A stretch of DNA of 64,000 nt from Nitrosomonas sp. (GCF_019752415.1 NZ_JAIEME010000039.1:5241-69240), one strand, 5' to 3'. Shown: positions 4,337 through 23,579, counted from the stretch's first letter. Notes: a model not told the origin generated them from the letters alone. Program-made: numbers and translations.

Positions 4337-5080
4337 TCAGGCTGTCGCTAATCCAAGATAACTGTGATCAAGGATCCCGAAAAGATCACCTGTCCAATAT
4401 TTCTCTAAAGTATTAACGGCTGCGTCTGTTACTTTATCTACTAACTGCTCATCGTTCCAAACAATTGGTATGGGCGGCTCTTTTAACGCCGCAAGAAGTA
4501 AAACTTGGAAATCCTCACTATTACCATTTTCGGGAAATGCGATAATTTGATCGAACTCGGATTCATCAAGCGTTGAGAATATATTAATCAGTGTGCCATA
4601 GAATAATGATTCAATATTTTCACTTATAGCTTCGATATTATCAATATGCTCTACACCCAGCTCACCCGAAGTATAAAGACTATCTTTAAGTTGAAGATCT
4701 GGAAAAGATGATACAAAAGTCTCGTCATAATTAGCGTAATCGAGACTATCAATCTTCGGTTTAACAATTGCACGCAAAGAGGCATTCGACAAAATTCCTT
4801 CTCGTGTATTGAAAGCAACAATATCTTCCAATGAGCCTAAATCAGAATTCACCAATTTGCTCTTATCTAATAACTTGCTCCAGTCTGGATTTACGTCGAC
4901 AAAATATTTCTGAACATTGTCTCTTGAATAGCCCGATATTTCACTCAGCATCCTGGTGGTTACGCCATATTCAGATGCTGTTTTGAAGATTCTCTGGGGA
5001 TCCCCAATATTCGCATTAACAAAGTTATTTGCTTGCTCGACTCTAATTCCTAGATCAGTCAAGTATTTTTCTGCCAACAT
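4337..5080 (-). CDS. hypothetical protein
   Basis: 247-aa uninterrupted ORF, acidic, no motif I recognise. Divergent from the Crp-family gene. Confidence 0.45.
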   Translation of the reverse strand: MLAEKYLTDLGIRVEQANNFVNANIGDPQRIFKTASEYGVTTRMLSEISGYSRDNVQKYFVDVNPDWSKLLDKSKLVNSDLGSLEDIVAFNTREGILSNASLRAIVKPKIDSLDYANYDETFVSSFPDLQLKDSLYTSGELGVEHIDNIEAISENIESLFYGTLINIFSTLDESEFDQIIAFPENGNSEDFQVLLLAALKEPPIPIVWNDEQLVDKVTDAAVNTLEKYWTGDLFGILDHSYLGLATA

Positions 5081-5268
5081 GAGACAATCTCCTATGTAAC
5101 TATATAGTTTAATTGTTAATTCTATGCCATTTTAGCATTCAATAGGGCAATTTAATCTAAAAGGCATTTTGCAAAACAAATGCATATCTTAGTAAAGTGC
5201 ATCTTCTTATCTTTTATAATGAACTTATTTTATGTAGTTAGGATTGAAGGAATTGATGAGGAATCCAA

Positions 5269-5994
5269 ATGACCACAAGAAATATTCCACCTGAGCGTGG
5301 TTGTGCCATACTTTCGATCATCAAAGAGTTTAAAGGCCTGTCTTCCTCTGATCTGGAAACGATCGCGCAAGTCTGTCATTGGCATCGCTATGAGGCCGGC
5401 GAGGAGATTGTTAGGTATCATGACGATTCCAATAGTGTTTTCTTTATCACGCAAGGCGAAATGCGTGTGCACTACTATTCGATGTCGGGGCAAGAAGTTA
5501 TTTTATGCGATCTGCCTGCGGGTGAGCTATTTGGTGAGTTAACAGCAATTGATAGTCGTTCACGTTCTGCAACCGTTGTCGCTAAAACAAGTTCATTAGT
5601 AGCGTCAATTTCCTCACCAGATTTCCTCGAGCTGATTTATCACAACCAGAAGATCGCATTTGCTATTTTGCAGCGATTAACCGAGCAGATACGTCGACTG
5701 ACTGAGCGTGTCTTTGAATTCAGCACCTTGGCTGTGCGGAATCGTATCCAGGCTGAGCTACTGCGCCTGGCAAAAAAACAAACTACCGGATCTAATATCG
5801 TCATTATTTCACCCGTACCAACACATGTTGAATTGGCGAATCTGGTTAGTACACATCGTGAAGCAGTCACACGAGAATTAAATAATTTGGAAAGAGCCAA
5901 TTTAATTCTGCGCAAAGACCATGAGCTGCATATTCTTGATATCGCAAAGCTAACAAAGATGGTTGAGAATGTTAATGAAAAGTGTAGCCCATGA
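5269..5994 (+). CDS. Crp/Fnr-family transcriptional regulator
   Basis: 241 aa. Cyclic-nucleotide-binding-like N-terminal domain (GEEIVRYHDDSNSVFFITQGEMRV..GELFGELTAIDSRSRSATVVA). C-terminal HTH (THVELANLVSTHREAVTRELNNL). Confidence 0.8.
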   Translation: MTTRNIPPERGCAILSIIKEFKGLSSSDLETIAQVCHWHRYEAGEEIVRYHDDSNSVFFITQGEMRVHYYSMSGQEVILCDLPAGELFGELTAIDSRSRSATVVAKTSSLVASISSPDFLELIYHNQKIAFAILQRLTEQIRRLTERVFEFSTLAVRNRIQAELLRLAKKQTTGSNIVIISPVPTHVELANLVSTHREAVTRELNNLERANLILRKDHELHILDIAKLTKMVENVNEKCSP

Positions 5995-6089
5995 AATTTT
6001 CTTGTTATCGCTCATTGAGTGAGAACGATTTTAGTCACTATCTGGGTACAGTCTAGCCGGACAAAGAAAGACAGTTCAGATAGTAAAAC

Positions 6090-6117
6090 ATCCCTGCAGC
6101 ATGTATGCTGCAGGGAT
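6090..6117. terminator. perfect 13+13 palindrome (ATCCCTGCAGCAT GT ATGCTGCAGGGAT), possible bidirectional terminator or protein site
   Basis: Read directly and anchored on ORF 6019. Lies about 95 nt downstream of the Crp-family gene. Confidence 0.35.
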
Positions 6118-6275
6118 GTTAATGAAATGTTTTCCAATCTTTCAGTTTCCACCACAAGCATGTGGCCAAATAAATGCGGAATAAACCCGCATAAATTAAA
6201 TATCAAGATGCTTATTTCTGTTCTCTGTCATGGTCTCCTTCCTTGATGGTCAAGATTTCCTTCCTTAAAATGTCC

Positions 6276-6422
6276 TAACAGGCCGTTGAAAAACGTTTTT
6301 GAGGCAGCCGATGCAAGGCAAAAATAGGCGAAAAAGCGTAGTTTATGCTTAATAAATGAGCATTTTTAGCCTGTTTTTTAACACCGCAGCGGCAATGCAG
6401 ATAGTTTTTCAACGGCCTGCTA
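6276..6422. repeat. MITE-like palindromic element, family A, copy 1
   Basis: ~147 bp with terminal inverted repeats (T)A(A/G)CAGGCCGTTGAAAAAC ... GTTTTTCAACGGCCTG(C/T)TA and an internally self-complementary core (AAAAACAGGC...GCCTGTTTTT). Near-identical copies at 46851-46996 and 48246-48391. Confidence 0.8.
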
Positions 6423-6472
6423 AATATCGCAAAGTCTTTTTTCATGCATTCTTAGCAACAACGCGCCCAAGC

Positions 6473-6706
6473 TTACGGGCTTAAAACATTAACGCTTGAA
6501 CGGTTAAACGGGAACAAAGAAGTATGTTCTGAAGAAACTTTCTTATTTTGTAATGCAACAACTTGTTCAGGAAAAGAAGATTCCTTCGCGAATACGATCT
6601 TAGGTAATCCAAATGAAAGAATTGCTAAAATTAAAAATGTGATTAGTAAAATATAGCCATTAAGGCTTTCCGCAAAAAATGTGTGATACAAATTTATATG
6701 CAACAT
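6473..6706 (-). CDS. small hypothetical exported/membrane protein downstream of the MtrB-like gene
   Basis: 77-aa ORF with one hydrophobic segment ending LPKIVFAKE, resembling the signal-peptide end of the decaheme protein (LPKYVFAED). No heme motif. Confidence 0.3.
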   Translation of the reverse strand: MLHINLYHTFFAESLNGYILLITFLILAILSFGLPKIVFAKESSFPEQVVALQNKKVSSEHTSLFPFNRSSVNVLSP

Positions 6707-6847
6707 TATTTACTCACCTTTATTAATTAATGCAGATAAATCGAATTGAATAATAATGCTATGATTTACCTTTGTCTGTGAGAAAATTCACATGAGGTAA
6801 TTTGAGCAATTTCCAGACAGCACTAACGCACGAAAAAACGGATTTAT

Positions 6848-8998
6848 TTATTGCCAGCTATAAAGAACTGAAAGAAAGGCGAAGCTAGCCATTTGGTTGG
6901 TGTCTTGAGTCAGTGTGGTGCCATCGGTATAACGCCATCCCGTCCAAGTCCATTCATTGGTTTTAAAGTGATCAAGAATGTAATCCAAGCGTACACCTAA
7001 GTTCCTGCGGATATCGTATCTGGCGAATAGCCGCAAGTTGGAGTACTGCGTTGTGAGATTCGGTACAATATTTACTTGCGGCTCAAGTGTAACTTTTTGA
7101 TTGAATTTATCGGTGTTATCCGAGAACATGAAATTTGCGCCAGTTTCAAGTTTGTCGGTTGGTTTGGCGGTGACTTCCAAGCCAACAGATGTGCCTATGT
7201 TATGCAGATTGGCCCCCCAAATTTCACGAATTCCGCTGTCCGTAATCGCGTTTCTGGAAGCCTGATTAATATGGGTTTCATTTCGTGAGAGCCATGCTGT
7301 AGCTTGCAGCCGCTCAGAAAATGTATAGGTAGCATCTAGTGAATAATTTCTTGCGGAACCTTTGCGCAACCCCAGATCCGAGCCTGCCCGATGGCCATAA
7401 TTATCAAACGATTCATCAATCGAAACTTGTATTGATAATGAATCAATCGGATCCCAGTTAGCCAGAAAGCGGACTTTATCCCGGGCACGATCAGCAAGAT
7501 TGGACGGTGCGATAAGATTAAAGAACGGATCGCCGGAACCTGTCGTATTCGTTAGAAAACTTGAACCGAAACGATCGCTGTGTATATATGAAATCGTACC
7601 AGTAATTGTCTCAGATAACGAGCGGCGAAGTTCTGCGCGATAGGAAAGCTCATCGGTTCTGAAGCGATGACCGGTATTGGTGGCCGTCCCGGTGCGGTCT
7701 CTGTGTTCATAGTCAACACTGCCTACCAAACGAAAATTATGCGGTAGTGCATAGCTTGCTTCAAATTTGCTGGTTATTGTTCTGAAAGAGCGTGGATTGT
7801 TCAGACCATTCCATCTGTTTCCGTTTAAATCATCATGCCAAGCTGCCATAGGGTTATAAAATAAAACAGGCGTTTTGTCGTCTCGGTCCTCGAAGCGAAA
7901 ATTGGTATTTATCGATAATTTTTGTAGCGGCCGCGCTGTTAATCCGGCCTGTGCGAGCGCAGTATCAACACGTCCGCCTAAATTGGAACCAATGCCGGGT
8001 GCGGTGAATAGCGATGGGGTGAATGTGTCTGTTTGGGTTGCTCGTGTATAAGCAACCTTGAACGTGCCACGAGTTGTCGGCGTAAAACTATATCCGCCCG
8101 ACAGAAACCCCTGATGCGATTGGTTATCTGGTGCAAGGGAAATCGGCGTATATTCACTGGGTGAAAAAATACCCCCAACGGTACTGCCGCCGACAGGAGT
8201 TAGTAATGCATTTTTGTTGTTATACATCGTCCCATAATAACCTCCGGACAATTGCAGATCTTTTCCTACATAATCTAGTGTAGTGCCAAAAATTCGGATG
8301 GTTGAGTTGATGGGCTCTGGAATAAATTCAAAGCCACCTATTGCTCTCGGGCTTGGCATACCATTAAAACCACTAAGCCGAGGCTCACCAAGACGGTTTC
8401 CGCGCCCAAAAATGCGATCCCCATCTTTTTCTTCATTACGAAAATGAAAATGAAGTTCAAGATTGCCAGGAAGGAATTTGTTAAAACCAAATCCAATCGA
8501 GTGGCGCTCGGTACTTAGCTGTGCAGGATTGCCCGTTGTTGGCGAAGTCGGAATGTGGGGATCAGTGGTGCCGATACCTGTAACCGCCGTATTGACAGTG
8601 AATGGCTCATAGCGAGGTGTCTGGCTATAATCGATAAAATAACCCCAGTTGCCTTGTTTGCTATGCTCAAAATGCACATCACGGTTTTGCAATCCTAAAT
8701 TGCGCCCCAGCAATTTAAACCATGTTCCTGTATCGTCATAGCGCTTGGATATATCGACATTAAAGATTCCATAAGGCCCTTCATTGCGCAAACCGGTATA
8801 CTGACCGAATCGCGCATTATCATTGAACAATTGGCCTGCACCGATATTGACGACACTTCTAGGTTTTGCGAGTTCTTTAACAGGATCATTATTTGTTTCC
8901 GACGAATATACCGAGGTTGTGGCCGCTAAGAATGTGAAAAATGCGATTGAATATTGAAACTTTCTTAGGTCAAGAGTAGCAGTAAACATTTTCTTCAC
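6848..8998 (-). CDS. MtrB/PioB-family decaheme-associated outer-membrane beta-barrel protein (MtoB/MtrB-like)
   Basis: 716 aa with a signal peptide. Gly/Tyr/Phe/Asn/Thr-rich alternating beta-strand pattern throughout. Starts 9 nt after the decaheme cytochrome gene, in the canonical mtrA-mtrB / mtoA-mtoB order. Confidence 0.7.
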   Translation of the reverse strand: MKKMFTATLDLRKFQYSIAFFTFLAATTSVYSSETNNDPVKELAKPRSVVNIGAGQLFNDNARFGQYTGLRNEGPYGIFNVDISKRYDDTGTWFKLLGRNLGLQNRDVHFEHSKQGNWGYFIDYSQTPRYEPFTVNTAVTGIGTTDPHIPTSPTTGNPAQLSTERHSIGFGFNKFLPGNLELHFHFRNEEKDGDRIFGRGNRLGEPRLSGFNGMPSPRAIGGFEFIPEPINSTIRIFGTTLDYVGKDLQLSGGYYGTMYNNKNALLTPVGGSTVGGIFSPSEYTPISLAPDNQSHQGFLSGGYSFTPTTRGTFKVAYTRATQTDTFTPSLFTAPGIGSNLGGRVDTALAQAGLTARPLQKLSINTNFRFEDRDDKTPVLFYNPMAAWHDDLNGNRWNGLNNPRSFRTITSKFEASYALPHNFRLVGSVDYEHRDRTGTATNTGHRFRTDELSYRAELRRSLSETITGTISYIHSDRFGSSFLTNTTGSGDPFFNLIAPSNLADRARDKVRFLANWDPIDSLSIQVSIDESFDNYGHRAGSDLGLRKGSARNYSLDATYTFSERLQATAWLSRNETHINQASRNAITDSGIREIWGANLHNIGTSVGLEVTAKPTDKLETGANFMFSDNTDKFNQKVTLEPQVNIVPNLTTQYSNLRLFARYDIRRNLGVRLDYILDHFKTNEWTWTGWRYTDGTTLTQDTNQMASFAFLSVLYSWQ

Positions 8999-9006
8999 CT
9001 CCTAGA

Positions 9007-9972
9007 TCAACGCTGAAACATGCTTTCATTGCGAATGTTTTCAGGCATATTGCTGCCGTGAATTTGTGTGTGGCAATTCAGGCATCCGCGAGCGAGGGTA
9101 TTTCTTGCATAAGCGCCAGTGAGTGTCCCGGAGCTGCCTTGGTGTGTGTTGGGTTCATGGCATTCCTGGCAAATGAATGGTGATCGAGTACGCAATAAAT
9201 TAGGCGCAGTCGTGCCATGAGGATTGTGGCAAATAGCACAATTTTCTTGTACCGGCGGGTGGTTGTAGACAAAAGGTCCGCGTTTTTCCATATGGCAGGT
9301 ATAGCAAGTATCGTTGACGTTATCTCGCACCATTTTGCTTGGACCGGCTGAACCGTGCGGATTGTGACAATCCGAACAAATCACTTTGCCTTCACGAATA
9401 GGGTGGCGATACGGACGGTTGATTAGTTGACGCATTTCTTTGTGGCAGTTAAAGCAAACCTCTGGCTGAGTAATCCGGTTGCGCACTTTGTCTTGCTCGG
9501 TATGAATTGTGTGGCAGGATGTACACGCAACATCGCGGTTAGCATGTGTGCTGCCAGACCAGTGCATACGCTTACCGCCTTGATGACAAGCTAAACAGGC
9601 GTTATTTCTTTCCTCAATAGAATTAACTGATTTTTTACCGAATGTTCTTTGAGGCATGGGTGCTTTGTGTGGAGTATCTTCATGATTTCCACCTTCGCCA
9701 TGGCAGCTGGTGCATGTCGGGGTTCGGTGATCAGCAGTGGTACCATGCTTGGTTTTCCCAATTGCAAGTATTGGATTATCACTACTCTCATCATGACATA
9801 CCGTACACTTACCATCTCCTTTCAGTATTAGATCTTGAGGGGGATCTGCATCGTCGAGATCCTCCGCGAAAACATACTTAGGAAGTATCAAAATACCAAT
9901 AACAAAAGAAATAGCTAATAGCCAAGACAGAATAATCTGTGCAGTCTTTGAATTGTCTAACATGCTTATCAC
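9007..9972 (-). CDS. periplasmic decaheme c-type cytochrome, DmsE/MtrA/MtoA family
   Basis: 321 aa with a signal peptide. Exactly ten CXXCH motifs (CTVCH, CTSCH, CLACH, CTSCH, CFNCH, CSDCH, CYTCH, CAICH, CQECH, CLNCH) at the size typical of MtrA-type proteins. Confidence 0.85.
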   Translation of the reverse strand: MISMLDNSKTAQIILSWLLAISFVIGILILPKYVFAEDLDDADPPQDLILKGDGKCTVCHDESSDNPILAIGKTKHGTTADHRTPTCTSCHGEGGNHEDTPHKAPMPQRTFGKKSVNSIEERNNACLACHQGGKRMHWSGSTHANRDVACTSCHTIHTEQDKVRNRITQPEVCFNCHKEMRQLINRPYRHPIREGKVICSDCHNPHGSAGPSKMVRDNVNDTCYTCHMEKRGPFVYNHPPVQENCAICHNPHGTTAPNLLRTRSPFICQECHEPNTHQGSSGTLTGAYARNTLARGCLNCHTQIHGSNMPENIRNESMFQR

Positions 9973-15342: not shown

Positions 15343-15419
<77 letters not shown>

Positions 15420-15427
15420 ACAAATCA

Positions 15428-15458
15428 AGAGGTTAGATTAATTTCTAACCTCTTTTTT
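15428..15458. terminator. rho-independent terminator hairpin (AGAGGTTAGA-ttaatt-TCTAACCTCT + T6)
   Basis: Perfect 10-bp stem followed by a T run. The integrase stop codon (15445-15447) lies inside it, so it could serve both the tRNA and the convergent integrase. Confidence 0.6.
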
Positions 15459-16470
15459 CTTTCTGATGTGACAAAATTGTGTCATCAAGGACGTTAGAAA
15501 CTAGCTCGGTATGCTGCATAAGTTGCGGTTTTGATAAATGAGCATACCGCCTCACCATCTCTTCCGATTCCCAACCTCCAAGCTCTTGCAATACATTCAT
15601 AGGTGTACCTAGCTGAGCCAGATAGCTCGCCCATGTATGACGCAGATCGTGCCATCTAAAGTTTTCTATTTCTGCTCGTTTTAATGCTTCTCTCCATGCA
15701 CGAGTATTAGCCCATGCAATCGGGACACTGCGGTATGTAAATACCCTGCTTGAATGCTTGCCGACTTGCCGAAGTAAAACCGCCATTGCTACGGAATTAA
15801 GTGGAACATGAATTGCTTTTCTTGCCTTGGCCTGGTCAGGATGTATCCATGCTGCTTTTCGATCCAAATCAAGCTGGCTCCATTCCAGATTAATCACGTT
15901 TGACTGCCTTAATCCAGTTGATAACGCAAATATCACCATATCCCGTTGATGAGGTGGCAGTTCGTTAAGAAGCCGTTTTACCTGCTCAGGTGGTAACCAG
16001 CGTATACGACGCTTAGGTTCTGGAAAAAGCCTGATTTTTGGAACCTTATCGATCCATTCCCAATCATGGCAAGCTTTCCTAAGAATTGCCCGTATCAAGG
16101 CCAAATGACGGTTGGCAGTTGAAGGACTTGTTGCCTTCGACTTTGCATGTGCAATATGATCAATCAATTCACGGTCAACTCCATGCAGTGGTTTATTACG
16201 CAAAAATTGCTGTAACCACCGCAGCTTTTCTTTATCACGTTCATGTGTTGCTTTGTGCTGTGTTTCCAGTAGAAACTTGCTGGCTGCTTCATCCCATGTA
16301 TATTTTGGCTTTACTCCCAGGCACTGAACACGCCATGATTCGGCTTTTAGCTTGTCGTGGTATTCTTGGGCCTGGGTTTTGTCGGCTGTGCCAGCAGAGC
16401 ATCTAATACGCTCTCCTGCTGGTGTAGTGAATGTGATCCACCACGTATTACCGCGCTTGTAGAGTGGCAT
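15445..16470 (-). CDS. tyrosine-type site-specific integrase
   Basis: 341 aa. C-terminal catalytic signature HDLRHTWASYLAQ..LGGWESEEMVRRYAHL. Adjacent to the tRNA att site. Confidence 0.9.
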   Translation of the reverse strand: MPLYKRGNTWWITFTTPAGERIRCSAGTADKTQAQEYHDKLKAESWRVQCLGVKPKYTWDEAASKFLLETQHKATHERDKEKLRWLQQFLRNKPLHGVDRELIDHIAHAKSKATSPSTANRHLALIRAILRKACHDWEWIDKVPKIRLFPEPKRRIRWLPPEQVKRLLNELPPHQRDMVIFALSTGLRQSNVINLEWSQLDLDRKAAWIHPDQAKARKAIHVPLNSVAMAVLLRQVGKHSSRVFTYRSVPIAWANTRAWREALKRAEIENFRWHDLRHTWASYLAQLGTPMNVLQELGGWESEEMVRRYAHLSKPQLMQHTELVSNVLDDTILSHQKEKRG

Positions 16471-16679
16471 ATGTTTACCTCCTTTTCTGTAACCACTCGC
16501 AACGCTTGCCGAGGGATAGAATACTGCGACCTGATGTATTCAACAAGATCATCAAGAATAAATACCCATCGTTTGCCAAGTTTAGCGCCAGGCAATCGTC
16601 CAGATTTAGCACGCCGCCGCACTTCTTCTGCATGCATCTTTAGAAAATTGGCTGCTTCAGTGAGTGAAAGTGTTTTCAT
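16347..16679 (-). CDS. excisionase/AlpA-like helix-turn-helix DNA-binding protein
   Basis: From the internal Met: MKTLSLTEAANFLKMHAEEVRRRAKSGRLPGAKLGKRWVFILDDLVEYIRSQY, a MerR-like excisionase HTH. Overlaps the integrase start by ~124 nt. Confidence 0.6.
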   Translation of the reverse strand: MKTLSLTEAANFLKMHAEEVRRRAKSGRLPGAKLGKRWVFILDDLVEYIRSQYSIPRQALRVVTEKEVNICHSTSAVIRGGSHSLHQQESVLDALLAQPTKPRPKNTTTS

Positions 16680-16939
16680 AGCGCATGGGTTTGTCGGGAT
16701 TATTAAAACCAAAATTTCTCTTGATATAGCCTTCCTTGGATACTTGCCATAAGGGGGCAGTAAGCATTGAAATTAATGTTTGACGGCAGCGAGTTGAAAT
16801 TTCAAGCGGTTGAAAACATAGAACAGTCCAAGCTTCAGAAAATAATCCGGGATTAAGCTGATGCGGAAGAATACCCACACGATTTGACTTAGCAAACAGA
16901 TTTGCAAGCTCACCCATAGCCCAGTCGAGATCATCCATT

Positions 16940-18019
16940 TCAAAGTTCATCAGAAGACTCACCCTGAGTACGTAAATAATGGTCTGAGAATGCAAGGCGT
17001 TTCGGTATAGCTTGTTTCTTTAGCAGCGCCACCACACGTTCAGCACTACCTTCACGTTGAAGCATGACATTAAACAAGGCACCATAAGAAGTTGAAGCGA
17101 CTTGCTTTAAACGTTCATAGCTAATGCGATCTTGTTCTTTGATTGTATGAATACGAAAAGCGCGTTCAGATACCCATGACATACAAGGGTAAGCACCTGC
17201 AACATATTCACCTGGGTGCAGTAAAACATCCCATGGGATAATGCGGTCTTTTGCATGAAGCTCTACTTCCCAGCGAACCCATGGACTTGAGGGGTCGCCT
17301 AGCTGCTTTCCTTTTTCATAAATCCTAATGAGCTTGCCGTTTTTGCGTCTACCAACTTCAAATGTACGGCCAAGATCATCATGTGTGATCCAATTACCAT
17401 GCTGTTTTGGGTTGGGATTTCTGCCGCCTTGCTTGAAGCCTCCGCTCTTATAAAGTTCAACTGCCTGGTCTACTGAATGCAGTCCTTTAAAATCATCTAC
17501 AGCACCATCCCATCGAGTAATTCGGCTCTGAAGATCATCTTGAAGAAATGAAGCAAATGATTGCCAATCATATATGAACGAACAACCTTCACCAGGTAGC
17601 GATAAAAAAGCAGTATCATTTTGACCGCCGTAGGCAAACATGACACAACCATGATCAAAGCGAAAAGATTTTTTCCAGCCTTGGAGACCACGCTCTTGAT
17701 CGGTCATACCGCCAAATCTAAAGTTAGTTACTTCACTAAAGGATTTGAAGAACTTTAAAGGATTATTATTTTCAGGAGGAAAAGGAAAAGAAACATTCAA
17801 CCAATCTGTTAAAGCTGCCTGTGATTTTTTTCTTTCTTCGGAGGGACTTTCCCCCCGTATTACCGTACGGGGGAGATTGACCGGATGAACCGTATCAGAT
17901 AACTGAATACCATCCGATGATGCGCCAGTGCAATGTGCTGTGTTGGTCGCTGGCGCTCCCAACCGCGCATTGACACTGGCGCTAGTTTGATTAATCAGTT
18001 TTGCAAAAGGTTTTTCCAT
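16940..18019 (-). CDS. replication initiation protein (Rep_trans / phage replication-initiation family)
   Basis: 359 aa. GWKKSFRFDHGCVMFAYGGQNDTAFLSLPGEGCS..ITRWDGAVDD..GRTFEVGRRKNGKLIRIYEKG..VRWEVELH is the typical pattern of rolling-circle-type replication initiation factors of small integrated elements. Confidence 0.65.
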   Translation of the reverse strand: MEKPFAKLINQTSASVNARLGAPATNTAHCTGASSDGIQLSDTVHPVNLPRTVIRGESPSEERKKSQAALTDWLNVSFPFPPENNNPLKFFKSFSEVTNFRFGGMTDQERGLQGWKKSFRFDHGCVMFAYGGQNDTAFLSLPGEGCSFIYDWQSFASFLQDDLQSRITRWDGAVDDFKGLHSVDQAVELYKSGGFKQGGRNPNPKQHGNWITHDDLGRTFEVGRRKNGKLIRIYEKGKQLGDPSSPWVRWEVELHAKDRIIPWDVLLHPGEYVAGAYPCMSWVSERAFRIHTIKEQDRISYERLKQVASTSYGALFNVMLQREGSAERVVALLKKQAIPKRLAFSDHYLRTQGESSDEL

Positions 18020-18071
18020 ACCCCTTAATATAAGGGGTATGTATTATCCTGTCAAGGATATTTAATATCCT

Positions 18072-18437
18072 TTAGCCTGCATCTAATTCTCGACGATGTT
18101 CTATCTTCACATCACCGCTTACAGCTTTCCAGAAGTTACTAACCCCACGGGCTATTTTATAGCCAAGTGATTTATAGGCTAAAGGGCCTTCCGGTGGAAA
18201 CATTTCACGAACATTGATACCGAGAATCTCCTCATATTTACGGATGGTGCGTTTGTTATGAATAATAAGTAATACTTTCCATCCTAAGAGTCGTCCAGTC
18301 ATGAGCATGCCTATAGCGGCCTGAAGCTCATCAGCTTGTCCGCGAAAATTCTCAGCAGCCTTATCTATAATCGCAACATATTGCAATGCTTCTTCTGGAG
18401 ATAGAGGAGGGATAGCTTGTTTTTCAAGATCAGACAT
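18072..18437 (-). CDS. hypothetical island protein
   Basis: 121-aa ORF co-oriented with rep/xis/int. No recognisable motif. Confidence 0.45.
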   Translation of the reverse strand: MSDLEKQAIPPLSPEEALQYVAIIDKAAENFRGQADELQAAIGMLMTGRLLGWKVLLIIHNKRTIRKYEEILGINVREMFPPEGPLAYKSLGYKIARGVSNFWKAVSGDVKIEHRRELDAG

Positions 18438-18910: not shown

Positions 18911-19028
18911 TAAGGAAACTCTGATTAAGTCCTTTGACAGGCTCAGGACGAACGGTAATATATTGATTACGTTGTGGGGGTGAGCTTGTCGAACCATGAA
19001 TGTAATCAACTTAATCAGAGCTTCCTTA
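18911..19028. repeat. MITE-like palindromic element, family B
   Basis: Terminal inverted repeats TAAGGAAACTCTGATTAAGT / ACTTAATCAGAGCTTCCTTA. Nested inner inverted repeat GACAGGCTCA / TGAGCTTGTC. Related ends occur at 61772-61921 and, more distantly, at 57797-57910. Confidence 0.7.
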
Positions 19029-19244
19029 ATTTTTATTTTAAAAAATATTTTTTTTACTTTACCTAGATATAATTAGGTGTTTATAATTAACCATTATCTT
19101 AATCTGGATATGGTATCAAATAAATCGGATCAGCTGATTAAGGTAAGGTAGCAAGTGATATCGGATATTCGCAACATTTATTGGAAACTATGTTTATTGG
19201 TGTATTTAACTTTGCTCTAAAAACTTTATGGAAGGAAGAATAAA

Positions 19245-19742
19245 ATGGCAAGAGGTCTAGTATGCATTGGCAGCATCAACGGTCAACCTATTTTTGCTGC
19301 ACCTCAATCGAGTGGTCTAGCCCCTATGAGAGTGGATGGTTTTACGCCTTTTGTACCATTTTCAAGCGGAGGTAGCGCAACGCCAGCTGCTACAGGTCTA
19401 GTCTGCATTGGCAGCGTTAACGGACAACCTGTTTTTGCCGCACCTCAATTGAGCGGTGCAACCCCTATGTCGTCGGGAGACTTTGGGCCATTTTCAAGCA
19501 GTGGTAGCGCAACGCCAGCTGCTACAGGTCTAGTCTGCATTGGCAGCGTCAACGGACAACCTGTTTTTGCTGCACCTCAATCAAGTGGGGCAACTCCTAT
19601 GTCGGCGGGAGACTTTGGGCCATTTTCAAGCGGTGGTAGCGCAACGCCAGCTGCTACAGGTCTAGTGTGCATTGGCAGCGTCAACGGACAACCTATTTTT
19701 GCTGCACCTCAATCAAGTGGTGTAGCCCCTATGTGTGTCTAG
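19245..19742 (+). CDS. leaderless tandem-repeat peptide protein (4 units containing GLVCIGS(I/V)NGQP(I/V)FAAPQ); candidate multi-core precursor
   Basis: 165-aa ORF with the SD-like GGAAGGAAG upstream. Units at aa 4-50, 51-94, 95-138 and 139-165. Differences between repeats in the 18-aa block are synonymous or I/V only. Confidence 0.6.
   Translation: MARGLVCIGSINGQPIFAAPQSSGLAPMRVDGFTPFVPFSSGGSATPAATGLVCIGSVNGQPVFAAPQLSGATPMSSGDFGPFSSSGSATPAATGLVCIGSVNGQPVFAAPQSSGATPMSAGDFGPFSSGGSATPAATGLVCIGSVNGQPIFAAPQSSGVAPMCV
19254..19739 (+). repeat. in-frame tandem DNA repeat (141 + 132 + 132 + 81 bp)
   Basis: Unit starts GGTCTAGT(A/C/G)TGCATTGGCAGC at 19254, 19395, 19527 and 19659. The 132-bp period is a multiple of three. 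Confidence 0.95.
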
Positions 19743-19744
19743 TG

Positions 19745-19996
19745 ATGAGCGAGGAATTTGTAGTCCGAGCTTTATTAGGAGAGGAAATTGATCCGGGCAG
19801 GGCCAATTTCCTCTCTGCAAGAGACAAGATTCTTATCAATCAGAATGCCAATCTACGTCTCCTGCAACAGCTACCTAATGAAAACTTTCCAACCCGTTTC
19901 CTCGTCGAGGGTGATGAGGTGCATATAAATGAATTATTAGATGAGTTCAAAGCTGGAATTGTAATAGAGCCGAATAAGAAAGTAAGTATTTTGTAA
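19745..19996 (+). CDS. small protein, possibly subtilisin pro-peptide (I9)-like
   Basis: 83 aa from an ATG 2 nt after the repeat-ORF stop. The C-terminus RFLVEGDEVHINELLDEFKAGIVIEPNKKVSIL resembles the end of I9 pro-domains. This fold assignment is by eye only. Confidence 0.45.
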   Translation: MSEEFVVRALLGEEIDPGRANFLSARDKILINQNANLRLLQQLPNENFPTRFLVEGDEVHINELLDEFKAGIVIEPNKKVSIL

Positions 19997-20010
19997 TCTC
20001 AAAATGGGAA

Positions 20011-21759
20011 ATGATCATGTCCTCTAACAAAAAAGATAAGCTATCTGATCAATTAAAAACTGAATCGGATCTTGTCGCAAATCAGGATGTTTCAGAAATA
20101 TCCAGCACACTAGATGCGAAGCCTACAAAAAATGTAGATGATACATTACAAATCGAGGTTATTCAGTCAAGGCCGCAAGAGTTTATCATTTCACCGAAGC
20201 GAACACATGGCCAAGCAGCTATTCAGATGCTTGCAAATGGAGAAAACCTAGTTAAAGACCTAAAAGCTTATGCTGGTCTAGACATCGAAATCGTGAATGT
20301 TCGCAAAAAGATAGGGATAGATACTCAGGCTGTCGATGGAGAAACTGCTGCTTTACTAGTCTCAATTGACCCACAAAAAGGCAGAGAGTTTGTTAATCAA
20401 TCAACCCTGCCGACAAGCCCGATTTGGGTAGATGAAAATTTTCGGATAACTTGCTCGGAGAGTATAACTAGTTTGTTCAGTGCCCAGACCTTTGTACAAG
20501 TATCTGATGGGGGAGCATCCGGTAGATTAGATATTTGCATTCTTGGTGAATCCGGAAAACCTTTGTCTAATTCGTCGGTGAAGCTGTACACCCCTTTGCA
20601 ACTTGTTCCCATTGTTGGAATTACGAATGAAGACGGTGTAGCAAGTTTTCAGTTGCCGGAAGCTATGATTGCCTCGATTGCTGGGCTTGTTATCGAACCA
20701 GAATCCATGCATTGGAGCAAGATAGTCAGAAACCCCATATTTAAAGCTGGAAAAATAAATAATATCAGGGTTCAAAGTTACGCGGATTTTGACAAGAATC
20801 TTTATGCTTCAGGCGCTCTCAGCTGGGGAGTTGGAAAGCTCGGTGTGTTTGATGAGAGTCGCTTGGTTGGTCGAGGGGTGAAAATTGGAATAATCGACTC
20901 TGGGTGTGATGCTACTCATCAGATGCTAAGTCATGTAACAAAAGGCGTTGACTTTAATCGCGGCGGCAGTGCCGAAAGCTGGAAGATTGATGAGATTGGT
21001 CATGGTACCCATGTGGCAGGGATCATTGGTGCAAGATATTCTGATGGAAGCCGACTGTCATTCCGTGGAGTTGCGCCAGAGGCTGAACTGTATATCTATA
21101 AGATTTTTCCTCAGGGTGACTTCTTTACTATGGGGGCTGCACTTGAAGCTGCTATAGCCGATAAGGTTGATATTATAAATATGAGCTTGGGATCAAAAGA
21201 TTTTTCAAATGATATAGCGGAATGCATTAATAAGGCCAAGAATGATGGGATCGCCTGCTTTGTTGCAGCCGGTAACTCTGGGGATGCGGTTCAGTTTCCT
21301 GCCAATTTAACGACATCCATCGCGGTAAGTGCAATTGGGCACAAAGCTTACCTCCCGATAGACTCGGTTTCTGCTAATACTTTCGTTCCGAACTTGTCTG
21401 AAGCTGAAGGGTTCTTTTCGCCATCATTTACATGTTTTGGAAATAGTATCGATTTCGCCGGCCCAGGTGTTGGTATTATTTCCACAGTCCCTAGAGGCGG
21501 AATAAAAGTGCTAGACGGGACCTCAATGGCCGCGCCCCACTTGACTGGTTTGGCCGCTTTATATCTTGGTGAGTCGAATAACATGTCACGTACTGCAACG
21601 AGAGTTGACTATATTTACGATTGTCTAAAGCGTATGGTTAAACCGATGGCGTTCGCATCAGAACGGATCGGGGTGGGAATGCCTTGCCTTGCCGGTGGTT
21701 CATCACCCTTAAGAAGAACCTCTTTTTCAGTTAGCGGTGGTGCATCATGTGGATGGTAG
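20011..21759 (+). CDS. S8 subtilisin-like serine protease, no signal peptide, with ~280-aa N-terminal extension
   Basis: 582 aa. Catalytic D296 (VKIGIIDSGCD), H331 (HGTHVAGIIG), N422 (AAGNSGD), S505 (DGTSMAAPHLTG). The N-terminal region has an I9-like stretch and a prealbumin-like stretch (RLDICILGESGKPLSNSSVKLY..TNEDGVASFQL). Confidence 0.85.
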   Translation: MIMSSNKKDKLSDQLKTESDLVANQDVSEISSTLDAKPTKNVDDTLQIEVIQSRPQEFIISPKRTHGQAAIQMLANGENLVKDLKAYAGLDIEIVNVRKKIGIDTQAVDGETAALLVSIDPQKGREFVNQSTLPTSPIWVDENFRITCSESITSLFSAQTFVQVSDGGASGRLDICILGESGKPLSNSSVKLYTPLQLVPIVGITNEDGVASFQLPEAMIASIAGLVIEPESMHWSKIVRNPIFKAGKINNIRVQSYADFDKNLYASGALSWGVGKLGVFDESRLVGRGVKIGIIDSGCDATHQMLSHVTKGVDFNRGGSAESWKIDEIGHGTHVAGIIGARYSDGSRLSFRGVAPEAELYIYKIFPQGDFFTMGAALEAAIADKVDIINMSLGSKDFSNDIAECINKAKNDGIACFVAAGNSGDAVQFPANLTTSIAVSAIGHKAYLPIDSVSANTFVPNLSEAEGFFSPSFTCFGNSIDFAGPGVGIISTVPRGGIKVLDGTSMAAPHLTGLAALYLGESNNMSRTATRVDYIYDCLKRMVKPMAFASERIGVGMPCLAGGSSPLRRTSFSVSGGASCGW

Positions 21760-22278: not shown

Positions 22279-22332
22279 CTCATAATCCCTTGGTCGCTGG
22301 TTCGAGTCCAGCCAGACCCACCAACAAATCAA
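22279..22332 (+). repeat. att core copy 2: displaced 3' fragment of tRNA(CAU)
   Basis: CTCATAATCCCTTGGTCGCTGGTTCGAGTCCAGCCAGACCCACCAACAAATCAA. Identical to 15375-15428 except for a compensated T-stem pair (A..T versus G..C). Followed by a hairpin (CACTTAGT..ACTAAGTG) plus a T run. Confidence 0.9.
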
Positions 22333-22634: not shown

Positions 22635-23579
22635 TTATTTTATTTCTCTAGGTATTATTGAGGAAAGATGTAAAAGTGTACCCTCTAAATCTGGGAATAA
22701 AGTAAGTTCACGTATATTCATTGTTTCTAATTTTACTTTCAGAATGGCATGAAGATGAGCAGGAATGCGAAGTTTAATTATTTTTGCTTTTTGCCATAAA
22801 TCAAAAAGTCCTTGATCGTCGTTAGGTACTTCACGTTCAGGAGTTTCAATTTTTAACATTCGTAACATATGAAACAAATTAAACTCAAAATCATATCGAA
22901 CGTTAAACGGAGCTAAGAAAGCACCTTGCTGAGAAACAAGTCTTCGAGAAATCCAAAAAGGTTCAACAAAAGCTACTCCTGGTTTATCTACAAAACCCCG
23001 CATTGCTGCATCAATCACTTTCAAAGCATTTAATTTATTGGGTATGTAGGGATGTTTGAGAGTTTCGATTGTTGGAGGAGAAAATTGTTTATATGGATTT
23101 TTAGGAAATGGAAACGATGGATCTTGATTATAACTAGCTACAGTATAGATTGTTTTACGTAGCCATGAATCATTGGCTTTATAGTCCCAATTATGATCAT
23201 ATGATCTATTAATTTCCATAGGCGAAAAGATCCACACAGCAGCATCAACATTCGGCTGGGCGTCACGAATAGCGAAATAGCATGCAATATAAAGTGATCG
23301 AGTAACATCAAGTAATCTAGTTGGAACGCCTCTATGTCTAAGAAAAGAAAGCCATGATAAATAATCTTCTTCATCTGGTAACTGAGAAAAAAATTCATGA
23401 AACCTTTGTTGCGCTTCAGTCATGATTTTTAACTCATACCTTTCTAAACCAGTTTCCTTAAGTACAGATTCAGGCACATTTCGTTCAAGATGTGTTTCCA
23501 ATTTCCATGAGTAATTACTTTGCCCTCGATATAAAGGTTTTGGATCTGCAGTATCGTATCGATGTGCAAGTCGATACAA
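22635..23579 (-). CDS. FRG-domain-like protein
   Basis: 314 aa with a TTG start. N-terminal PLYRGQSNYSWKLETHLER matches the (F/Y)RGQ signature and spacing of FRG domains. Confidence 0.5.
   Translation of the reverse strand: MYRLAHRYDTADPKPLYRGQSNYSWKLETHLERNVPESVLKETGLERYELKIMTEAQQRFHEFFSQLPDEEDYLSWLSFLRHRGVPTRLLDVTRSLYIACYFAIRDAQPNVDAAVWIFSPMEINRSYDHNWDYKANDSWLRKTIYTVASYNQDPSFPFPKNPYKQFSPPTIETLKHPYIPNKLNALKVIDAAMRGFVDKPGVAFVEPFWISRRLVSQQGAFLAPFNVRYDFEFNLFHMLRMLKIETPEREVPNDDQGLFDLWQKAKIIKLRIPAHLHAILKVKLETMNIRELTLFPDLEGTLLHLSSIIPREIK

Follow-up and report, generated by a model that had tools for sequence, protein, structure and literature searches.

A conserved gene triad in Nitrosomonas joining a tandem-repeat polyprotein to a cytoplasmic subtilase: a candidate mobile peptide-release cassette

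We analysed a stretch of 64,000 nucleotides (nt) of Nitrosomonas sp. DNA (GCF_019752415.1 NZ_JAIEME010000039.1:5241-69240), called the window below and meaning that whole stretch, with a focus on three adjacent genes at positions 19245-21759 that encode a tandem-repeat protein, a small protein and a subtilisin-type protease of family S8. An earlier note on this DNA, made from the sequence alone, had proposed that the three form a system in which the subtilase releases several copies of a short peptide. On rereading the window sequence, the three open reading frames (ORFs), their coordinates, the Shine-Dalgarno-like site and the gene spacings were found as claimed: the TAG of the repeat ORF and the small ORF's ATG are 2 nt apart, and a gap of 14 nt precedes the S8 ORF. 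The cassette, about 2.5 kb in size, is laid out as follows.

18934-18961 and 19058-19087, + strand: two sigma-70-like promoter matches 5' of the repeat ORF, consensus matches only
19230-19238, + strand: Shine-Dalgarno-like GGAAGGAAG, 6 nt 5' of the repeat-ORF ATG, read from the sequence
19245-19742, + strand: repeat polyprotein, 165 amino acids (aa), with units at 19254-19394, 19395-19526, 19527-19658 and 19659-19739
19745-19996, + strand: free-standing pro-domain-like protein, 83 aa, modelled as beta-alpha-beta-beta-alpha-beta and ending ...IEPNKKVSIL
20011-21759, + strand: S8 subtilase, 582 aa (Pfam Peptidase_S8; AlphaFold2 (AF2) model)

Support for the two candidate promoters is weak, since 13 promoter-like sites were found and 9.4 expected, and Rfam gave no match in the 800 nt upstream of the operon. 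The exact 165-aa repeat protein is absent from the protein collection while both of its neighbours are present, the protease in a 580-aa form that starts two codons later (public record P0014). The window repeat ORF therefore seems to be unannotated in public data, or called with another start.

The repeat protein starts MARGLVCIGS and ends ...APMCV. Its GLVCIGS motif begins at residues 4, 51, 95 and 139, confirming four tandem units of 47, 44, 44 and 27 aa, the first of which opens at residue 4 and leaves room for neither a leader nor a signal peptide, as the earlier note had stated. Every unit holds an 18-aa block, GLVCIGS(I/V)NGQP(I/V)FAAPQ, followed in the three full units by a Ser/Gly/Pro linker that includes GPF/TPF. 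At the DNA level, Tandem Repeats Finder reported 2.9 copies with a 132-nt period and 93% matches, and a direct-repeat tool four copies. The proposal that every block ends in a Pro serving as P1 residue had to be dropped: the last residue of the block is Gln, and the units conserve P-x-F or x-P-L/M at their ends, in line with the classical P1/P2 preference of subtilisins. The repeat belongs to no described family, as the note had supposed, with no entry in Pfam, NCBIfam or PADLOC, and in the literature we found no description of the repeat, of the sister clade's glycine-zipper polyproteins or of the protease architecture described below. A NUDIX-like Pfam match on the repeat protein (E 1e-7) was rejected because no single stretch passes and the score only adds up four weak matches, which cover 28 of the profile's 96 positions; matches to PaaA-like_N, to DUF4179 and to a streptamidine-related repeat of RiPPs (peptides made by ribosomes and modified after translation) were weak and all far below their cut-offs.

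Searching 5.8 billion proteins with the repeat protein returned only five relatives, at 36-45% identity, and all five carry G-L-[VI]-C-I-G-S-x-x-G-x-P-x-F units. Their contigs encode either the repeat protein, an 84-aa ORF and an S8 protease, or the repeat protein directly followed by a longer S8 protease. Across 13 core-clade precursors, the units follow the pattern [PA]-[AM]-A-x-G-h-h-C-h-x-S-x-[ND/S]-G-x-x-h-[F/L/M], which suggests a strand-turn-strand with one Cys, and every such hairpin-like unit terminates in P-x-F or x-P-L/M. In all 13 precursors the last Cys is followed by just one or two residues (MCV, MCG, MCF, LCA, LCI, LCF, LCGG, MCGG, MCGS), and the proteins are almost uncharged, the window protein having two Lys/Arg and three Asp/Glu in 165 aa. 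The start MARG-L[VI]CIGS is common to the window precursor and that of Ralstonia pickettii DTP0602, and for these two the sequences bear out the term leaderless; other members have Gly/Ser/Pro-rich N-terminal extensions of 25-60 residues, without a signal peptide. The linker motif GPFSSGG(S/T)A is common to the window and locus L100, whose precursor has 397 aa and seven units.

Could the repeat ORF be spurious, a piece of non-coding tandem DNA lying by chance beside a housekeeping protease? It is missing from public annotation in at least two genomes, as a spurious ORF would be. Against this, synonymous differences between units exceed non-synonymous ones in the ORF frame (proportions pS 0.17 versus pN 0.03 for units 2/3), stops are present in both other frames, the homologues at 36-45% identity keep motif and frame, and the gene order described next recurs across bacterial classes, with fusions. 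The units are under purifying selection, and the comparative data effectively refute chance adjacency.

Inspection of gene neighbourhoods showed that the three genes co-occur elsewhere. About 19 loci in Alpha-, Beta- and Gammaproteobacteria and in one Bacillota genome share the order of repeat protein, ORF of about 80 aa (free or fused to the protease N-terminus) and S8 protease, and their proteases are alike in an unusual N-terminal architecture. Precursor, small ORF and S8 gene are present in L001-L009, L089, L090, L093-L100 and L102; the count takes in all family loci with contig sequence on the upstream side of the protease (L092 and L101 end before the small ORF), and L091 keeps the small ORF only. 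In at least five loci (L001, L002, L090, L093 and L096) the small ORF is fused to the protease. The DTP0602 locus (CP006667.1, L093) illustrates how such a cassette escapes annotation: a three-unit repeat ORF beginning MARGLICIGS... (7120-7494) lies in an unannotated 1.4-kb gap, and public annotation begins the protease (7665-9740) at an internal Met, so that the fused pro-domain goes unseen. On comparative grounds the triad is a conserved, self-contained unit and not a chance arrangement, because its synteny recurs and because small ORF and protease are found fused.

Further members came from a scan of representative genomes, a metagenome scan (L089-L092) and a protease search. The representative-genome scan yielded a single member among 185,579 species, an alphaproteobacterial metagenome-assembled genome (L009). 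From the alignment-based genome scan, 79 of 80 loci were generic S8 proteins, none with the small ORF, and were set aside; a hidden Markov model (HMM) of the small ORF matches the family loci and none of the 79 generic S8 loci from the same scan. Scanning genome contigs with a single protease as query found nothing, and no family member turned up among viral contigs or in the phage and plasmid collections. A word-indexed protein search with a profile of the N-terminal architecture returned only a fragment, so we used an exhaustive profile search of 1.84 billion proteins, which gave 141 representatives at E<=1e-30 and 669 at E<=1e-10, some of them unrelated giant beta-sandwich repeat proteins. 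By these counts the protease family is modest in size and its Cys-containing, hairpin-like subclade rare. The plasmid-collection matches belong to a different, shorter S8 cassette: on Rhizobium and Agrobacterium plasmids (L103, 3773-7734; L104, 3722-7644), an S8 protease of about 450 aa, an 80-aa hypothetical protein and a DNA/RNA non-specific endonuclease of about 700 aa lie together, the Ti-plasmid copy adjoining a CHAT-domain protein. This may be another protease-gated effector system.

The protease itself is a bona fide S8 enzyme. Pfam PF00082 (Peptidase_S8) is matched over residues 287-529 (E 1e-38), scoring 133.6 bits where the cut-off is 21.8, and the PADLOC 'subtilase' model also matches (E 1.6e-30). 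The catalytic residues stand in D-H-S order with the oxyanion Asn, and D296, H331, N422 and S505 are all intact; in an alignment of 50 family members they are kept in 50, 42, 48 and 47 proteases, respectively. The protease has no N-terminal hydrophobic segment, and AF2, whose model has a predicted local distance difference test score (pLDDT) of 85, predicts residues 1-42 to be disordered. Pfam, the alignment and the model agree with the earlier description of an S8 subtilase that has an intact catalytic set and an N-terminal extension of its own and lacks a signal peptide. The model divides the protein as follows.

Residues 56-142 (20176-20436), + strand: predicted pro-domain in cis, beta-alpha-beta-beta-alpha-beta
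Residues 150-162, + strand: low-confidence stretch
Residues 170-253 (20518-20769), + strand: predicted beta-sandwich
Residues about 285-560 (20863-21690), + strand: predicted catalytic domain with D296, H331, N422 and S505

Among PDB structures, Foldseek matched the whole model best to unautoprocessed pro-subtilisin E (3whi; 522 aligned columns, template modelling (TM) score 0.79 for a 355-residue target). Next came mature subtilisins (TM 0.84-0.90 over the target for BPN', E and Savinase), and the matches also include two intracellular subtilisins, 7y6m and 2xrm. Because the best match of the whole model is a pro-subtilisin, the N-terminal domain is predicted to occupy the propeptide position. 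The protease thus resembles pro-subtilisin E and BPN' in its S8 fold and catalytic residues, its N-terminal beta-alpha-beta-beta-alpha-beta pro-domain and a hydrophobic or aromatic P1-like end, and the Bacillus intracellular subtilisins in lacking a signal peptide. It differs from subtilisins in having two pro-domains (one in cis, one separate or fused), a beta-sandwich insert, no Pfam I9 match and a dedicated repeat substrate gene. Two side observations were made. The closest proteases have in common a Gly-rich C-terminal tail ending in Trp (window 21700-21756, ...SGGASCGW; L089, ...GGGGGFSGGGASGGW; L093, ...GGGGGFSGGGGSGTW). A domain related to the beta-sandwich also occurs in 10-36 tandem copies in giant proteins of 1,000-4,800 aa (P0133, P0159, P0176, P0181 and others), which match the N-terminal-architecture profile only at positions ~105-170.

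The 83-aa ORF had been described as resembling a subtilisin pro-peptide of the I9 type, a claim that stands for its fold and its homology to the cis pro-domain and falls short for Pfam family membership. The AF2 model (pLDDT 85.8) places strands and helices at E3-9, H18-31, E37-43, E51-56, H58-64 and E72-76, a beta-alpha-beta-beta-alpha-beta order. Comparing profiles of the small-ORF family and the cis N-domain family with hhalign gave a probability of 93.9% (E 1.6e-7); the small-ORF HMM also matches the cis N-domain weakly in several proteases, and the extra N-terminal residues (about 80) of the longer proteases align with the window 83-aa ORF. A subtilisin propeptide, once cleaved, keeps its last residue lodged in the S1 pocket and inhibits in the manner of a product. 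The small ORFs end in a way that fits this: the final residue of seven free copies is Leu, Phe or Tyr, placed exactly six residues past the I-E-x-N strand in six of the copies and five past it in the other (L097, ...DSLLEY). Examples are the window (...KKVSIL), L089 (...KKIVPF), L095 (...APIQPL), L102 (...QTKPL) and L100 (...NADLF); L009 ends ...ALKPL, eight residues past the strand. Longer or fused copies mostly carry Phe or Leu at that position, and the cis pro-domains mostly have Phe or Tyr five to six residues past the equivalent Asn/Asp. The small ORF thus shows the traits of an I9-type propeptide in its fold, its attachment to an S8 domain and its P1-like C-terminus. Two search results speak against the assignment. 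The Pfam Inhibitor_I9 HMM matches neither pro-domain (small ORF at E<=0.1; 32 cis-domain homologues at E<=1), and Foldseek with the small-ORF model gave weak, generic ferredoxin-like matches with no I9 entry in the top 50; a sequence-profile search of the PDB gave nothing for the small ORF. The small ORF is pro-domain-like and lies outside the Pfam I9 model. Since Foldseek did not single out I9 propeptides, the I9-like assignment is supported by topology, position, transitive homology to the cis pro-domain and the C-terminal pattern, not by family membership.

A sister clade of proteases, 30-37% identical, keeps the pro-domain, the beta-sandwich, the S8 domain and the small ORF, upstream or fused (for example in Priestia megaterium, Methylocystis sp. 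9N, a Geminicoccaceae bacterium and metagenomic contigs). Its first gene encodes a quite different tandem-repeat protein with 3-11 Gly-rich units such as LVPQGLFGNILGGLAPVVGGAVGGDVGRAISGIGQTVGGLLPFQAGPQ, and one of these polyproteins matches Pfam Romo1 (37 bits, above the cut-off, E 4e-9) and Gly-zipper families. These precursors contain no Cys at all, and their units keep about 50 conserved residues. The units end in LPF(E/Q/G/D)A(G/D)P, for example LPF(E/Q)AGPQ, strikingly like the P(V/I)FAAPQ of the window. In support of the peptide-release reading below, the F-x-A-x-P/Q motif reaches 6.5 per 1000 aa in precursors versus 0.06 in background ORFs (about 100-fold).

Taken together, these features suggest the following course of events. 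The first gene would supply an uncharged polyprotein with four copies of a short Cys-containing unit, and the third a subtilisin-type protease without export signal that would be gated by its own pro-domain. The second would supply a paralogous, ready-cut pro-domain whose C-terminal hydrophobic residue may sit in the S1 pocket and which may fold the enzyme, hold it inactive, or both. Release or degradation of both pro-domains would yield active protease, which would then cut the polyprotein after the recurring P-x-F and G-P-F sites (QP(V/I)F and GPF/TPF; x-P-L/M in relatives). Pro at P2 and Phe at P1 are the classical preference of subtilisins (suc-AAPF-pNA); because the window sites agree with this preference and with the C-termini of the small ORFs, we infer cleavage after QP(V/I)F and GPF/TPF. 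The window products would be peptides of about 17-25 residues containing GLVCIGSVNGQP(V/I)F and linker peptides of about 19 residues; SSGGSATPAATGLVCIGSVNGQPVF-type peptides would have 25 aa, and the first peptide would be the 17-aa MARGLVCIGSINGQPIF. We regard it as probable that the subtilase cuts the repeat polyprotein.

What the peptides do is a further step. By analogy with the glycine zippers of the sister clade, the products are most likely small, hydrophobic and membrane-active, and because the sister units are glycine zippers and the cassette has no export, a membrane-active effector in biological conflict would be the most economical role. Inside the cell, such peptides might bring about suicide, abortive infection or addiction; set free by lysis, they might act like bacteriocins. 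The resulting reading of the triad, as a self-contained, horizontally mobile, cytoplasmic peptide-release cassette that yields probably membrane-active conflict peptides, is one for which we see the chances as evenly balanced. More tentatively, and with a distinctly lower likelihood, the triad may be a protease-triggered cell-suicide or abortive-infection module in which a gated subtilase shreds a harmless polyprotein into many membrane-inserting peptides ('polyprotein holin' logic). Such a module would be distinct from gasdermins and from RNA-controlled type I toxins, would have two or more kinds of effector, with Cys-containing hairpin-like units as one kind and glycine zippers as another, and would spread on small islands, satellites and plasmids.

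Several points weigh against the peptide-release reading. Cleavage and the cleavage sites are proposed from motif resemblance. The window unit differs from a glycine zipper and has only moderate hydrophobicity. The enrichment of F-x-A-x-P/Q counts tandem copies that are not independent of each other, and only some core-clade precursors have F-x-A-x-P. The catalytic His is lost in 8 of 50 family proteases, so proteolysis would not be universal in the family; in these eight (P0044, P0055, P0058, P0063, P0068, P0074, P0077 and P0078) it is replaced by Gln in six, Leu in one and Tyr in one, the Asp is kept, and they are possible pseudo-proteases. No inspected locus holds an exporter, an immunity gene or a trigger-sensing domain. 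Finally, many loci are islets of two or three genes between housekeeping genes (uvrA-ssb, minCDE, efp-earP, rpsF-rplI, glpX), without defence neighbours.

The combination of a multi-copy precursor and an S8 protease in one operon recalls the cyanobactins (PatE with PatA/PatG), and the earlier note had drawn this parallel together with one to Kex2-processed repeats. Neither kinship held up. The PatA/PatG model TIGR03895 scores 28.9 bits against a cut-off of 421; unlike cyanobactin clusters, the cassette has no leader, no PatE recognition sequences (G(L/V)E(A/P)S, AYDG-type), no YcaO heterocyclase and no DUF domains, encodes one protease rather than two, and sits in proteobacterial mobile islets rather than cyanobacterial clusters. 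With the Kex2-processed repeats of fungal dikaritins and alpha-factor, and with animal antimicrobial-peptide polyproteins, it shares tandem identical peptides with spacers and a protease of the subtilisin/kexin family. It differs from them in having no dibasic sites (two Lys/Arg in 165 aa, none between units 2-4), no secretory pathway and no oxidase partner, and in being bacterial and cytoplasmic. The label RiPP implies a modification and is not supported by the gene content, since no modifying enzyme is encoded.

Actual RiPP chemistry nevertheless has some evidence in its favour. The subtilase would then be a transpeptidase whose acyl-enzyme at the unit-final Phe is resolved by the unit Cys, giving a thiolactone, or by an amine, giving a macrolactam, with cyclic products like those of PatG or the Agr autoinducers. 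The precursors are multi-core, every internal unit contains a single Cys, whose spacing to the final Phe/Leu/Met is constant (C-x4-[ND]-G-x3-F), all 13 core-clade precursors close with Cys and one or two further residues, and the streptamidine-related NCBIfam repeat matches faintly (E 0.013, far below the cut-off). However, besides the low PatA/PatG score, the nearest structures are ordinary hydrolytic subtilisins, with no PatG-type macrocyclase in the top 50; the Cys-less precursors of the sister clade use the same protease architecture; and no tailoring enzyme was found at any inspected locus. We consider this chemistry improbable.

A further parallel is with the bacterial and fungal gasdermins with caspase-like or subtilase partners, in which an adjacent protease is proposed to turn an inert precursor membrane-active; subtilase (PF00082) partners have been documented for gasdermins. 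The cassette differs from them in having no gasdermin match (Pfam, PADLOC), an effector that would be many small peptides from a polyprotein, and no TPR, LRR or NACHT sensor on the protease. Glycine-zipper peptides, such as Romo1/Mgr2 and CdzC/CdzD, resemble the sister-clade units, which match the Romo1 and Gly-zipper models; they differ from the window unit, which contains Cys and has a strand-turn-strand pattern, and from the cassette, which has no type I secretion system and no immunity gene. In the window island and the inspected related loci we also found none of the marks of class II bacteriocins and microcins, namely a double-glycine or Sec leader, an exporter and an immunity gene. With PatA/PatG below the cut-off and recognition sites, dibasic sites, gasdermin and exporter all absent, the cassette is a member of none of the cyanobactin, Kex2 or gasdermin systems.

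In the window, the triad lies in a small integrative island, whose other features are the following.

15343-15428, + strand: tRNA-Met gene and attL (tRNA 15343-15419; 54-nt direct repeat 15375-15428; ARAGORN, Rfam, repeat family D2)
15445-16470, - strand: tyrosine integrase of the island (Pfam Phage_integrase, E 1.4e-31)
16347-16712, - strand: excisionase-like HTH_17 protein (Pfam HTH_17, E 5.8e-12)
16940-18019, - strand: Rep_trans rolling-circle-type replication initiator (Pfam Rep_trans, E 7.4e-30)
18072-18437, - strand: 121-aa ORF without family match, outside the conserved cassette in other loci
22279-22332, + strand: attR, the other copy of the 54-nt repeat (96% identity; direct-repeat search)

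The two copies of the 54-nt direct repeat (52 of 54 positions identical) lie 6904 nt apart, one of them being the 3' end of tRNA-Met, and between them stand the integrase (int), the excisionase-like HTH_17 gene (xis), Rep_trans (rep), the 121-aa ORF and the triad; repeats of a tRNA 3' end thus flank an integrase-bearing segment, as in tRNA integrative islands. Because the remaining genes are int, xis, rep and the family-less 121-aa ORF, the triad is the sole recognisable cargo. The earlier picture of a 6.9-kb int-xis-rep island with the operon as its only cargo is thereby upheld, and a Pfam and ORF survey likewise found no further maturase, exporter or immunity gene in the island. Directly outside attR is an FRG-domain gene (22635-23579, - strand) that matches the PADLOC candidate system PDC-S15 (E 9e-30), which raises the possibility that conflict genes gather at the tRNA-Met site as a hotspot. 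An ORF upstream of the tRNA resembles an RpoD-type sigma factor, and GC content is about 36-46%. A 30-nt element with a perfect palindrome (ACCCCTTATATTAAGGGGT-type) lies at 18014-18043, where the Rep_trans gene starts, and could serve the island as an origin or operator.

Mobile or defence-type surroundings, which the note had linked to such islands, recur at the window and three other loci. L094 is an int-xis-DUF3987 island adjoining rpsI that also carries an RnlA/RnlB toxin-antitoxin pair; L093 adjoins an IS605 TnpB, an HNH nuclease and a HEC-01 ATPase/DUF4276 pair; and L100 adjoins a RepB primase and VirB/Trb genes (type IV secretion system). This company counts in favour of the peptide-release reading and bears also on a reversed toxin-antitoxin logic, in which the protease would be toxic and the repeat protein its sacrificial substrate or competitive inhibitor, so that a stop in translation, for example on phage infection, would use up the decoy and expose cell or phage proteins to attack. 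Such a decoy would suit the compact, mobile, stand-alone architecture without other effector, the islands shared with RnlAB and other defence genes, and the many repeated candidate cleavage sites per molecule. It fits less well with how much of the unit is conserved, which is far more than a cleavage site: the whole of G-L-[VI]-C-I-G-S-x-x-G-x-P-x-F persists although overall identity is about 45%, and the sister units keep ~50 conserved residues, which argues that the peptides themselves are functional. Inhibition would moreover already be provided by the two pro-domains. We think a decoy role unlikely.

At L001, a fragment of a LytS-type histidine kinase and a LytTR response regulator precede the cassette directly (1-1376, upstream), the latter being of the regulator type that peptide quorum systems use. 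This would be expected if the products were secreted pheromone or bacteriocin peptides whose exporter and sensing or resistance genes are unlinked, and glycine-zipper bacteriocins do exist, namely CdzC/D of Caulobacter. The LytTR pair, however, is present at that one locus only; signal peptide, double-glycine leader, ABC/C39 exporter and immunity gene are absent from all of the roughly 19 loci, and the protease has no export signal. Secretion is, in our estimate, a poor prospect for these peptides. Downstream at the same locus (4902-6902) is a gene for a large protein with a patatin-like GGGxK...GxSxG motif.

The cassette, in sum, is real, conserved and undescribed, and is best described as following the logic of a multi-copy precursor plus a dedicated subtilase. 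For that logic it is unusual in being cytoplasmic and mobile, in having two pro-domains and no tailoring or export genes, and in the leaderless form of the window copy. As annotation misses the precursor genes in at least two public genomes, the family is invisible to pipelines that mine for RiPPs or for defence systems. The single Cys of each unit and the C-terminal Cys throughout the core clade point to a chemistry or assembly not yet understood. If the reading is right, a stand-alone, pre-cut pro-domain plus a second one in cis would be a new regulatory design for subtilases. The cassette would then be a minimal, portable route, in two to three genes, to several copies of a peptide from one gene without leader, tailoring enzyme or exporter, and a bacterial, cytoplasmic counterpart to the peptide polyproteins of eukaryotes and the multi-core precursors of cyanobactins.

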